Shown here in pieces: positions 52,836-53,933 of a stretch of 64,000 nucleotides of DNA; positions within the stretch are counted from its first letter, which is position 1, and every line of letters starts with the position of its first letter. The notes below the pieces were generated by a model that worked only from the letters and a program-made list of their open reading frames with translations, ran no database searches and had not been told where the DNA came from. The translations under genes were made by a program, and so were the position numbers. This stretch comes from Escherichia coli (GTDB lineage Bacteria; Pseudomonadota; Gammaproteobacteria; Enterobacterales; Enterobacteriaceae), in assembly GCF_045037415.1 (NCBI RefSeq), contig NZ_CP173438.1. The stretch is one strand, 5' to 3'.

Positions 52836-52844
52836 GATTTACGT

Positions 52845-52869
52845 AAAAACCCGCTTCGGCGGGTTTTTG
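52845..52869 (+). terminator. Rho-independent terminator after rnpB
   Basis: AAAAACCCGCTTCGGCGGGTTTTTGC. Confidence 0.75.
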
Positions 52870-53544
52870 CTTTGTGTGCCCAGGGTAAGATGAATATCTA
52901 CGGTATTAATAACAGACTTTGTAAGAAGTTATTAAGTCTATATTGCATTTAAAAGGTCGTAATTATACGTATATTTCTCTCATTAATTGTAAGTTCGCAG
53001 GTATTGTCCGATCGTTGAATAATTTGGGCGTTATAACCTAAATTTTTACCGTCCAATAATCAATATTTCTATTGTGATTGTTAACCACTGCGTGCATTGA
53101 CGGGATTGAAGGGTGAAGAATATGTGCAATTGAGAAGCCTTTCATTGATGCCTGCCTTGTCATCATGACAAACAATAATAGATGCTTATTCTCCTTGCAC
53201 GGTTCTTTCGCACTATCAAAAAACGCTCATTTACCCGGCATTACAGTCAACGAAGCAACATTCTATGGCCTACGCTGATGTAAAGCACAGTGAGAATCCC
53301 CCTTGTTGTCTTCGTCTGACCTTATCGCGGCGACCAGCAATTATTCGTTTTGTGATCCTCAACACAAAATGCTCTTCGTTGCCTATGATGGGAGAAGAAT
53401 TTATGGAAAACGATTGCATTCACAAAATGACATCCTGTCAGAAGAGAAAACGTTGACGTTAATCAATTGTTCGAGATGATCAATACCTGTATTCGAAATT
53501 TTAAAATATTGATAAAATAAATGTTTGTTCTCCAACAAATAGCG

Positions 53545-53757
53545 TTAAAAAATGTGACGTGCCGCATTATTTATCGCTGAAAATGGTTTGTTTATAATAA
53601 AATTTGAGAACTTACTCATTAAATTTAACTCAAATTTTGCCTGGTAATTATCCGGTAATTGCTTGAAATATAGTCTCAGCCCCTTTTTTGTATTAACCAC
53701 ATAAAGAATGATGTTATCGCCATAAAATATGGTTATCCCCGTCATTTTTTTTGACAA
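53545..53757 (-). CDS. small ORF divergent from tdcA, possible tdcR-like gene (uncertain; TTG start, no obvious SD)
   Basis: 70-codon minus-strand ORF MSKKMTGITIFYGDNIILYVVNTKKGLRLYFKQLPDNYQAKFELNL... about 180 bp upstream of tdcA, where a small divergent tdcR gene is expected; identity not verifiable from memory. Confidence 0.25.
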   Translation of the reverse strand: MSKKMTGITIFYGDNIILYVVNTKKGLRLYFKQLPDNYQAKFELNLMSKFSNFIINKPFSAINNAARHIF

Positions 53758-53854
53758 AAATCAGGGTTTATGCTGATTTTCATACTTTAACTTGTTGATA
53801 CTTAAAGGTATTTAATTGGGGTAACGATGCTATGGAAAGTATTGAAAGTTAATT

Positions 53855-53870
53855 TGTGAGTGGTCGCACA
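53855..53870 (+). promoter_or_regulatory. candidate CRP binding site in tdc operon promoter
   Basis: TGTGAGTGGTCGCACA fits TGTGA-N6-TCACA; located about 65 bp upstream of tdcA start; tdc operon is known to be CRP-dependent. Confidence 0.55.
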
Positions 53871-53933
53871 TATCCTGTTCATTTCATTTTGATACACTTC
53901 ATACCGTCAATGAGGTAATTAACGTAGGTCGTT

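Follow-up and report, generated by a model that had tools for sequence, protein, structure and literature searches.

The 64,000-nt stretch of E. coli DNA analysed here (hereafter the window) carries rnpB and tdcA on its plus strand, separated by an interval whose G+C content is 35.4%, compared with 51.3% for the whole window, and which falls to 28–31% in 200-nt windows. The longest ORFs overlapping this interval are one on the minus strand (70 codons, starting with TTG) and one on the plus strand (63 codons). An initial annotation made from the letters alone had described an AT-rich stretch with no ORF above 70 codons, which the base composition and the ORF list bear out; at 35% G+C, the lack of long ORFs is unremarkable in itself. 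It had also stated, correctly, that in K-12 the genes yhaC, yhaB and tdcR lie between rnpB and tdcA. Our alignments and profile searches identified the following features:

52459..52835, plus strand: rnpB, the RNase P RNA gene (Rfam RF00010; annotated rnpB in SK1144)
52836-53933, 1,098 bases: the rnpB-tdcA interval, between rnpB (plus) and tdcA (plus)
52843..52876, plus strand: intrinsic terminator of rnpB, with a hairpin of 12 pairs and then a T-rich tail (terminator scan)
52938..52981, minus strand: yhaC 3' remnant, the last 13 codons and stop (aligns to positions 2911-2954 of the K-12 locus, L002)
52980..53042, minus strand: yhaC internal island of 63 bp, YhaC residues 91-111 (L002 positions 3767-3829)
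53043..53145, minus strand: yhaB 5' remnant, codons 1-34, with 31 of 34 residues as in the K-12 YhaB N-terminus
53146..53400, no strand: spacer from the yhaB start to the tdcR end, with a conserved palindrome at 53346-53371
53265..53456, plus strand: 63-codon ORF, judged not to be a gene (no NCBIfam match)
53401..53619, minus strand: tdcR pseudogene, a 72-codon frame with TAA at codon 25 (53545-53547)
53545..53757, minus strand: 70-codon ORF that runs to the new TAA, with 46 upstream in-frame codons before tdcR codons 1-24
53620..53933, no strand: divergent tdcR-tdcA control region, with a predicted CRP site, an IHF consensus match and an invariant block
53934..54872, plus strand: tdcA, the right boundary (dN/dS 0.01-0.08)

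We consider that the rnpB-tdcA interval is very probably present here as the ST131/B2-type E. coli allele, which consists, from left to right, of five parts: the rnpB terminator, with a single copy of a unit repeated 3.5 times in K-12; the scars of a low-G+C yhaB-yhaC pair, most of which was lost through deletions of 812 and 727 bp; what was once the upstream spacer of yhaB; tdcR, which as a full-length ORF is inactivated by a nonsense mutation at codon 25; and the divergent tdc control region, in which the predicted CRP site and the IHF consensus are intact. The allele is a common strain variant, and RefSeq already marks both yha remnants and tdcR as pseudogenes; positions 52400-54100 are 100% identical to the SK1144 genome. 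A PLSDB search with the interval matched chromosome-like E. coli records only, and on this basis we rejected a mobile or plasmid origin.

The rnpB gene matched RF00010 (bacterial RNase P RNA class A) at 319.7 bits (gathering score 100), over model positions 1-367, i.e., the full model. At the 3' flank of the gene in K-12 the rnpB repeat occurs 3.5 times in tandem, with a 113-bp period, whereas the window has one copy and no tandem repeat, and so is without ~2.5 of the K-12 copies. Beyond this, the alignment with K-12 that the initial annotation had suggested resolved into four collinear blocks, with the same gene order and orientation, the same yhaB-tdcR spacer and 89–99.8% identity to K-12 MG1655 in the retained segments, interrupted by two internal deletions (812 bp and 727 bp) that took most of yhaC and yhaB and left fragments of both. 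That annotation had named a recognisable pseudogene as the outcome that would count against its own account, and such remnants are what the alignment returned. Its statement that yhaB and yhaC are absent holds in that there is no intact copy, but fragments amounting to ~210 bp (52938-53145) can be recognised; its label "non-coding" likewise needs correcting for these fragments and for the 219 bp of tdcR with an internal stop (53401-53619).

The yhaC 3' remnant translates to EKYTYNYDLLNAI in the window and EDYTYDYDLLNAI in K-12, while the internal island is 95% identical to K-12 DNA and identical to YhaC 91-111 at 21 of 21 residues. Junction A lies at 52981/52982, with a 2-bp TC overlap, and junction B at 53042/53043; junction microhomology is 0–2 bp, and a search for internal repeats behind the deletions found only short, chance-like two-copy families. 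K-12 YhaC scores 887 bits against its family (NF007262, ~395 aa), of which only residues 91-111 and the last 13 remain here, and of the YhaB family (Pfam PF27690, UCP004546, ~179 aa) the window retains codons 1-34 only. The PGAP annotation of SK1144 agrees, listing the yhaC island as a partial pseudogene and the yhaB remnant as a pseudogene "missing C-terminus". Given the low G+C and patchy distribution of yhaB-yhaC, we considered whether the pair might be a known anti-phage defence system; this was rejected, PADLOC giving no match to YhaC and a marginal one to YhaB (E = 0.011). The NCBIfam entry for YhaC gives the family a name and nothing more.

The genomes of E. ruysiae, E. whittamii, E4930/E1V33, Citrobacter and Salmonella, which are yhaBC-free, have their rnpB repeats joined straight to a tdcR-like block and tdcA. 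The window shares with them the lack of a functional yhaBC and the same palindrome, conserved blocks and CRP site but, unlike them, keeps three yhaBC fragments and the yhaB upstream spacer, which argues that it lost the pair secondarily. Our searches of the yhaBC-free E. ruysiae, E4930, E. whittamii, E69, Citrobacter and Salmonella turned up no piece of yhaC or yhaB, so the pair was probably never present in these genomes. Given that rnpB runs straight into the tdcR-like block in Citrobacter, Salmonella and several Escherichia species, we infer that an ancestor of E. coli acquired yhaBC at this site; in the B2 lineage the pair would then have decayed. The picture of a single gain is made less clean by E. 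albertii, which has a weak match of 40 nt to the 5' end of yhaB (E = 4e-5). In its proposal that the interval might be degraded DNA the initial annotation was on firmer ground, as the interval is in part degraded, low in G+C and restricted to some lineages.

As in K-12, tdcR and tdcA are divergent, with the tdcR frame 314 bp upstream of tdcA; its conceptual read-through matched the entire TdcR profile NF008507 (positions 1-72; 172.4 bits, cut-off 100 bits); here, however, the frame is interrupted, and PGAP reports an "internal stop" in four genomes including SK1144. Translations and the SNP map place the change at codon 25, which is TCA (Ser25) in K-12 and TAA in the window, a plus-strand G-to-T change at 53546. 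Judging from this reading frame, full-length TdcR cannot be made from the stop allele. The 70-codon ORF had been singled out as the one with the orientation expected of tdcR, and its last 24 codons are indeed tdcR 1-24, but its first 46 are an upstream extension: only residues 47-70 match the profile (positions 1-24, 43.9 bits, below the cut-off of 100), so that with 24 of 70 codons it was ruled out as an intact tdcR. This frame continues in K-12 to give 118 codons, and the 46-codon extension is open only in E. coli-like lineages, being closed in E. ruysiae, E. whittamii, E4930 and E69. Past the TAA there are 47 tdcR codons, within which a 45-codon C-terminal ORF with a TTG start scores 107.9 bits over profile positions 28-72. 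NF008507, named "transcriptional activator TdcR", is 72 aa long, and a 114-aa form appears in older annotations. We rejected the idea that the 63-codon plus-strand ORF is a gene: it matches no family, its K-12 version has a GTG start and 10 different residues out of 63, and other Escherichia species lack the DNA that holds its 5' third.

On either side of tdcR the motif scan found candidate regulatory elements. The spacer palindrome at 53346-53371 hardly varies among Escherichia, Citrobacter and Salmonella, its core TGTGATCCTCAACACA (53351-53366) departs from the CRP consensus at a single position, and in species without yhaBC homology to the window restarts 2–12 bp ahead of it. The control region has a predicted CRP site, TGTGAGTGGTCGCACA (53855-53870), with one mismatch to TGTGA-N6-TCACA, which is the same in the window and K-12; the 20-mer around it is identical in 21 genome loci, Citrobacter among them, and is shared by 13 Citrobacter species and Salmonella. 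An exact match to the IHF consensus, TATCAACAAGTTA, lies on the minus strand at 53788-53800, and a 27-bp block at 53713-53739 is invariant in eight Escherichia sequences; other invariant blocks lie at 53408-53431, 53458-53471 and 53508-53519. The suggestion of regulatory DNA was therefore apt, at least as motif scanning and invariant blocks can predict, since the interval appears to include the CRP- and IHF-type tdc control region. The SELEX-predicted K-12 promoter has the -10 hexamer TGTAAT where the window has TGGGGT, and our promoter scan was uninformative (7 sites against 4.2 +/- 2.2 expected). In K-12, the tdcR-tdcA spacer is bound by RpoD holoenzyme and flagged for H-NS (PMC3946193), and is listed among Lrp targets (PMC5320599). 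A CRP/IHF-dependent tdc promoter should still fire in the stop allele. In order and length, the ORFs downstream of tdcA are as expected of tdcB to tdcG; because these ORFs are of normal length, and because the tdcR DNA is conserved as nucleotides and not as codons (see below), little or no loss of tdc function is expected from the tdcR stop.

Using a 161-nt probe spanning both junctions (coverage of at least 80%), we found the double deletion in 1,061 of 5,426 complete E. coli genomes, and typing with SNP-centred 55-mers gave the tdcR stop in 557 and Ser in 4,813 genomes of the 5,426. Carriers of the stop allele include EC958 and other ST131 strains. The nesting of the 557 stop alleles within the deletion allele was sampled in four genomes, and all four also have the double deletion; strain VG38-53E1 has the deletion and an intact tdcR. 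As VG38-53E1 combines the two, the stop appears nested within the deletion lineage, and would have arisen later, on the deleted background. As a strain polymorphism the allele is routine, an example of how an apparently empty AT-rich gap can hold decayed accessory genes and a pseudogene, and K-12 gene order is not transferable to B2 strains. Studies of tdc-dependent serine/threonine catabolism in ExPEC or ST131 should not presume a functional TdcR.

A comparison across genera raised the question of whether TdcR acts as a protein at all. DNA homologous to tdcR (62–71% identity) occupies the same place, from rnpB to tdcA, in 13 Citrobacter species and Salmonella; by comparison, identity between E. 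coli and Salmonella is just 39% at the fourfold-degenerate sites of tdcA. In all 14 of these non-Escherichia sequences the tdcR frame is closed, by a 1-nt length difference and several stops, a shared TAA at the Ser63 codon among them, and in 10 of the 14 the start codon is replaced (ATA, TAA, AAA, ATT or AAG). Within Escherichia, variable columns are spread over the three codon positions as 28/27/31 in tdcR compared with 7/7/92 in tdcA, and pairwise dN/dS is 0.3–1.6 for tdcR and 0.01–0.08 for tdcA, i.e., the Escherichia tdcR sequences have neither the third-position excess nor the dN/dS well below 1 that indicate purifying selection. Among public proteins, many TdcR variants are frameshifted, truncated or IS-interrupted. 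A 96-nt segment (53388-53483, tdcR sense), alone in the tdcR block, has at least one stop-free reading frame in each of 24 sequences; in Citrobacter and Salmonella the tdcR-aligned frame of this segment ends at a TAA and the first ATG, if any, varies by species. With no common start and a TAA ending the frame, we rejected a small ORF common to the three genera. In Klebsiella tdcA is not syntenic, and only ~230 nt adjoining it align, weakly; the ORF may have been gained in Escherichia or lost in a Salmonella-Citrobacter ancestor.

These observations are what would be expected if tdcR were no conventional protein gene and 53346-53760 were an old element conserved at the nucleotide level, either extended cis-regulatory tdc DNA or an unstructured transcript, over which an ORF happens to be open only in Escherichia; the ST131 stop would then be neutral. 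This possibility agrees with the five-part anatomy given above and differs solely in the nature of tdcR, and we put it forward tentatively, as less probable than not. The closed frames over homologous DNA, the flat codon-position variability and dN/dS, and the many broken public variants all favour it, as does the coincidence of the conserved blocks with IHF-, FNR- and CRP-like motifs, although these motifs are consensus matches only and lie 350–500 bp from the tdc promoter. Against it, nonsense events in tdcR are fewer within Escherichia than expected (1 observed, 4.7–8.1 expected; P 0.003–0.054 depending on the null), its 219 nt have no indels across 11 Escherichia sequences, and an RNA structure is supported neither by covariation nor by folding energy. 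The genetic studies of Schweizer and Datta in 1989 and of Hagewood et al. in 1994, going by their titles, also reportedly made tdcR a positive regulatory gene, and it is on them that a role for TdcR as trans-acting activator of the tdc promoter is based. Ten of the 11 Escherichia lineages keep the frame open, which also weighs against our own expectation of a near-silent stop, as the protein may matter and its loss may have a phenotype. Even so, tdcR, an activator gene in lists for decades, may possibly be an Escherichia-only ORF lying atop an older conserved non-coding element. If this is so, the function of 53346-53760 would be exerted by DNA or an unstructured transcript and not by a protein, and in the ST131 nonsense allele, a natural knock-out carried by ~10% of the complete genomes sequenced, the two roles would be separated.

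Returning to the five-part allele, three further accounts of it seem to us much less probable. We regard it as improbable that the nonsense allele was adaptive, through loss of function or regulatory rewiring, and helped ST131-like strains to succeed in the gut or urinary tract. The tdcA/tdcR spacer has been repeatedly selected in mouse-gut evolution, through IS5 insertions and point mutations (PMC7518454; PMC7064181), but those mutations fall in the spacer, outside the ORF; tdc genes have been tied to L-serine use in B2 pathobionts (PMC12143686). Our literature search found nothing relevant on a tdcR pseudogene or on tdcR in ST131, and no paper that links tdcR and ST131 in this way. The stop allele is present in 557 genomes from hosts that include humans, a yak and a marsupial, a frequency that may mirror heavy sequencing of one clone, as all of the 55-mers are 100% identical. 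The strongly nucleotide-conserved blocks might instead be taken to hide a structured small RNA or a further small protein gene, but here variability lacks three-base periodicity and the shared stop-free stretch 53388-53483 lacks a common start. A covariance-model scan for small RNAs had been suggested, and our permissive Rfam scan of 50000-56000 returned rnpB alone above threshold, with three weak matches that all lay on the rnpB terminator; RNAalifold on eight sequences (covariation term -0.47, one compensatory pair) and a single-sequence fold (z-score -0.60) likewise gave no support for a structured RNA. With a structured small RNA thus rejected, we give a hidden gene of either kind hardly any credence. 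Just as implausible is a reading along the lines of the initial annotation, in which the AT-rich spacer is non-coding and purely regulatory, simply lacks yhaBC and has the 70-codon ORF as its tdcR: the base composition, the CRP and IHF motifs near tdcA and an ORF that overlaps tdcR in the right orientation speak for it, but the K-12 alignment, with yhaC/yhaB fragments at defined junctions, refutes it, and only 24 of the 70 codons belong to tdcR.

Lastly, the rnpB 3' flank is a rearrangement point in other genomes also. In Z1323CEC0002 a tyrosine integrase and IS26 at this position replace the whole tdc operon, and in MS14385 an IS1-bounded deletion extends from it to cyuP, whereas the window keeps the tdc operon.

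The gap between rnpB and tdcA comprises 1,098 bases at 35.4% G+C, as against 51.3% for the window, with a minimum of 28–31% in 200-nt windows. The initial annotation had correctly described it as AT-rich, with longest ORFs of 70 codons on the minus strand and 63 codons on the plus strand. The genomes of E. coli SK1144, DETEC-E480 and Esc28 are 100% identical to the window over 52400-54100, and the NCBI PGAP annotation of SK1144 is included in the following list. We conclude that this gap is real but ordinary, a frequent and already annotated allele built from known pieces.

Features of the rnpB-tdcA gap and its flanks (window coordinates; identities are to the K-12 locus by BLAST)
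52400-52873: BLAST block, garK, rnpB and terminator, 99.8%
52459-52835, plus strand: rnpB (Rfam RF00010, 319.7 bits)
52847-52981: BLAST block, yhaC 3' flank and final 44 nt of yhaC, 89%
52979-53041, minus strand: partial 'hypothetical protein' pseudogene (PGAP, SK1144)
52980-53042: BLAST block, 63-bp internal piece of yhaC, 95%
53043-54100: BLAST block, yhaB codons 1-34, spacer, tdcR, control region and tdcA, 95.7%, ungapped
53044-53145, minus strand: partial 'hypothetical protein' pseudogene (PGAP, SK1144)
53265..53456, plus strand: ORF of 63 codons, one of the two longest in the gap
53401-53619, minus strand: 'tdcR, transcriptional activator, internal stop' (PGAP, SK1144)
53545..53757, minus strand: ORF of 70 codons, TTG start, one of the two longest in the gap
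53934-54872, plus strand: tdcA, right neighbour of the gap

In K-12, rnpB is followed by three genes on the opposite strand, yhaC (395 aa), yhaB (179 aa) and tdcR (72 aa), and then tdcA. The BLAST blocks shared with this locus are collinear with breaks, and therefore two K-12 segments are missing from the window: 812 bp within yhaC, and 727 bp made up of the 5' part of yhaC and the 3' part of yhaB. The junction at 52981/52982 has a 2-bp TC overlap, and inspection of that at 53042/53043 revealed no clear microhomology. The translated remnants correspond to YhaC residues 91-111 (21/21 identical to K-12), the YhaC C-terminus (EKYTYNYDLLNAI and its stop) and YhaB residues 1-34 (31/34 identical). 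The initial annotation had considered the gap non-coding and devoid of yhaB and yhaC; its interpretation holds in part, as the gap does include degraded acquired sequence and regulatory DNA. It overlooked the remnants of the two genes and assigned the tdcR frame incorrectly.

K-12 TdcR reads MSKFSNFIINKPFSVINNAACHIFSRYLLENK...NRFP, and the matching frame in the window reads MSKFSNFIINKPFSAINNAARHIF, a stop and then RYLLENK...NRFP, because a single base change (G to T at 53546) converts TCA to TAA. The 70-codon ORF, formerly proposed as tdcR-like, is this frame started at an upstream TTG, and just its residues 47-70 match the 72-position NCBIfam TdcR profile NF008507 (positions 1-24; 43.9 bits, under the cut-off of 100). 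A 45-codon TTG-start ORF (53401-53538) matches positions 28-72 with 107.9 bits, and conceptual translation through the stop yields 172 bits. Upstream of tdcR, the K-12 extension gives 118 open codons from a TTG and 114 from the first ATG, 114 being the most frequent TdcR length in public protein sets; in E. ruysiae, E. whittamii, E4930 and E69 this extension is closed, and the frame's first ATG is that of the 72-aa form. The tdcR start position is ATA in E. albertii (L015) and ATT in L009 (GCA_002110245.1, 3001-3003), which is nonetheless annotated with a 72-aa TdcR. We treated the 63-codon plus-strand ORF as spurious: a family search returned no match, its start in K-12 is GTG, 10 residues differ from K-12, and its 5' third is DNA missing from other Escherichia species.

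A 161-nt probe across both junctions, counted at ≥80% coverage, identified the double deletion in 1,061 of 5,426 complete E. coli genomes, and in the remainder it splits into separate yhaC and yhaB pieces. With a SNP-centred 55-mer (megablast, 28-nt word), which matches only genomes with the same base, the stop version of tdcR codon 25 was found in 557 genomes and the Ser version in 4,813; the diagnostic SNP is shared by, among others, EC958 and strains labelled O25b:H4-ST131. All four stop-allele genomes inspected (SK1144 and marsupial, yak and Thai blood isolates) have the double deletion, and in VG38-53E1 tdcR is intact although the deletion is present; therefore the stop is probably younger and arose on the deletion background.

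The evolution of tdcR is unlike that of a protein gene. Across 11 Escherichia lineages the variable columns at codon positions 1/2/3 number 28/27/31 in tdcR versus 7/7/92 in tdcA, and pairwise dN/dS is 0.3–1.6 versus 0.01–0.08. DNA resembling tdcR (block 53346-53760) is found at the equivalent location in 13 Citrobacter species, with local matches at 67–71% identity, and in Salmonella, at 66% (loci L014-L034, L035). Over the 219 tdcR-frame positions, identity to the window is 62% in both Salmonella and C. werkmanii; at tdcA fourfold-degenerate sites E. coli and Salmonella are 39% identical. The frame is closed in Salmonella and 13/13 Citrobacter species, with a 1-nt length difference and several stops, one of them a shared TAA; in 10 of these 14 sequences the aligned start position lacks all three start codons (ATG, GTG, TTG). 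Many E. coli TdcR variants in public protein sets are frameshifted, truncated or IS-disrupted. Pointing the other way, 10 of the 11 Escherichia lineages keep the frame open, nonsense events are in deficit (one observed versus 4.7–8.1 expected; P 0.003–0.054, depending on the null), and a search for indels in the 11 sequences yielded none. No RNA structure signal was detected. On our reading, the tdcR block may be constrained mainly at the nucleotide level, and the ORF would be Escherichia-specific and under weak selection at most; the stop in ST131 probably matters little.

In the control region, TGTGAGTGGTCGCACA (53855-53870) matches the CRP consensus with one mismatch and lies within a 34-bp block invariant across eight Escherichia sequences; the 20-mer around it is identical in Citrobacter and Salmonella. 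An exact IHF consensus match is present at 53788-53800, and 27 bp at 53713-53739 form a further invariant block. The ORFs downstream follow one another as expected for tdcA to tdcG, with lengths to match. We infer that the tdc promoter machinery is intact. The K-12 tdcR-tdcA spacer binds RpoD holoenzyme and was flagged for H-NS (PMC3946193), is among listed Lrp targets (PMC5320599), and has been hit by selection repeatedly during evolution in the mouse gut (PMC7518454, PMC7064181). The −10 hexamer of the K-12 'constitutive' tdcA promoter, a genomic SELEX prediction (53818-53823), is TGTAAT in K-12 and TGGGGT in the window; the 15 bp around it vary in all lineages. A palindrome at 53346-53371, CGTTTTGTGATCCTCAACACAAAATG, has a core one mismatch from the CRP consensus and is almost invariant across three genera; in species free of yhaBC, homology to the window restarts just ahead of it.

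In E. ruysiae, Escherichia sp. E4930 and E1V33, E. whittamii, E69, 13 Citrobacter species and Salmonella, the rnpB repeats lead directly into the tdcR-like block; homology to the window restarts at ~53337-53347, and searches of these genomes detected no yhaC or yhaB fragments. The yhaB-yhaC pair has 32–36% G+C and was described as a young operon of unknown function in a phylostratigraphy study (PMC12218254). The simplest reading is that this low-G+C pair was inserted in an ancestor of E. coli and then mostly deleted in the window's lineage, a history that is less than certain because E. albertii has a weak 40-nt yhaB-like match. In the divergent lineage L007 (GCA_015316485.1, 6001-8332) yhaBC is 80% identical to K-12; its tdcA synonymous divergence from E. 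coli is 0.08–0.10, and ~9–10% of tdcR non-synonymous sites differ (pN 0.09–0.10). The far greater divergence of its AT-rich block, compared with the neighbouring tdcA, suggests recombination or rapid evolution.

Behind rnpB, K-12 has a tandem array of 3.5 copies with a 113-bp period (K-12 locus L002, 2275-2667), whereas the window has a single copy (52786-52876). Strain 97-3250 has ~2 copies, and a Salmonella record (L035 1165-1822) ~7, of this unit, which consists of the rnpB 3' end and terminator. Other E. coli strains are rearranged at the rnpB 3' flank: a tyrosine integrase and IS26 replace the whole tdc operon in Z1323CEC0002 (L011 5437-9050), and MS14385 (L012 2398-3940) has lost tdc and part of cyuP through an IS1-bounded deletion. 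The remaining Rfam matches in the window (3976-14905; two tRNAs, the rimP leader, naRNA4, the S15 leader and SraG) are usual for this chromosomal region. A 6-kb contig of a MAG labelled 'uncultured Bacteroides sp.' (L020, CAUHML010000178.1) was compared with window 52832-53852 over ~2.7 kb of its length; this part matches at 85–95% and shows an intact K-12-type yhaC-yhaB arrangement. The contig almost certainly comes from E. coli and was mis-binned.
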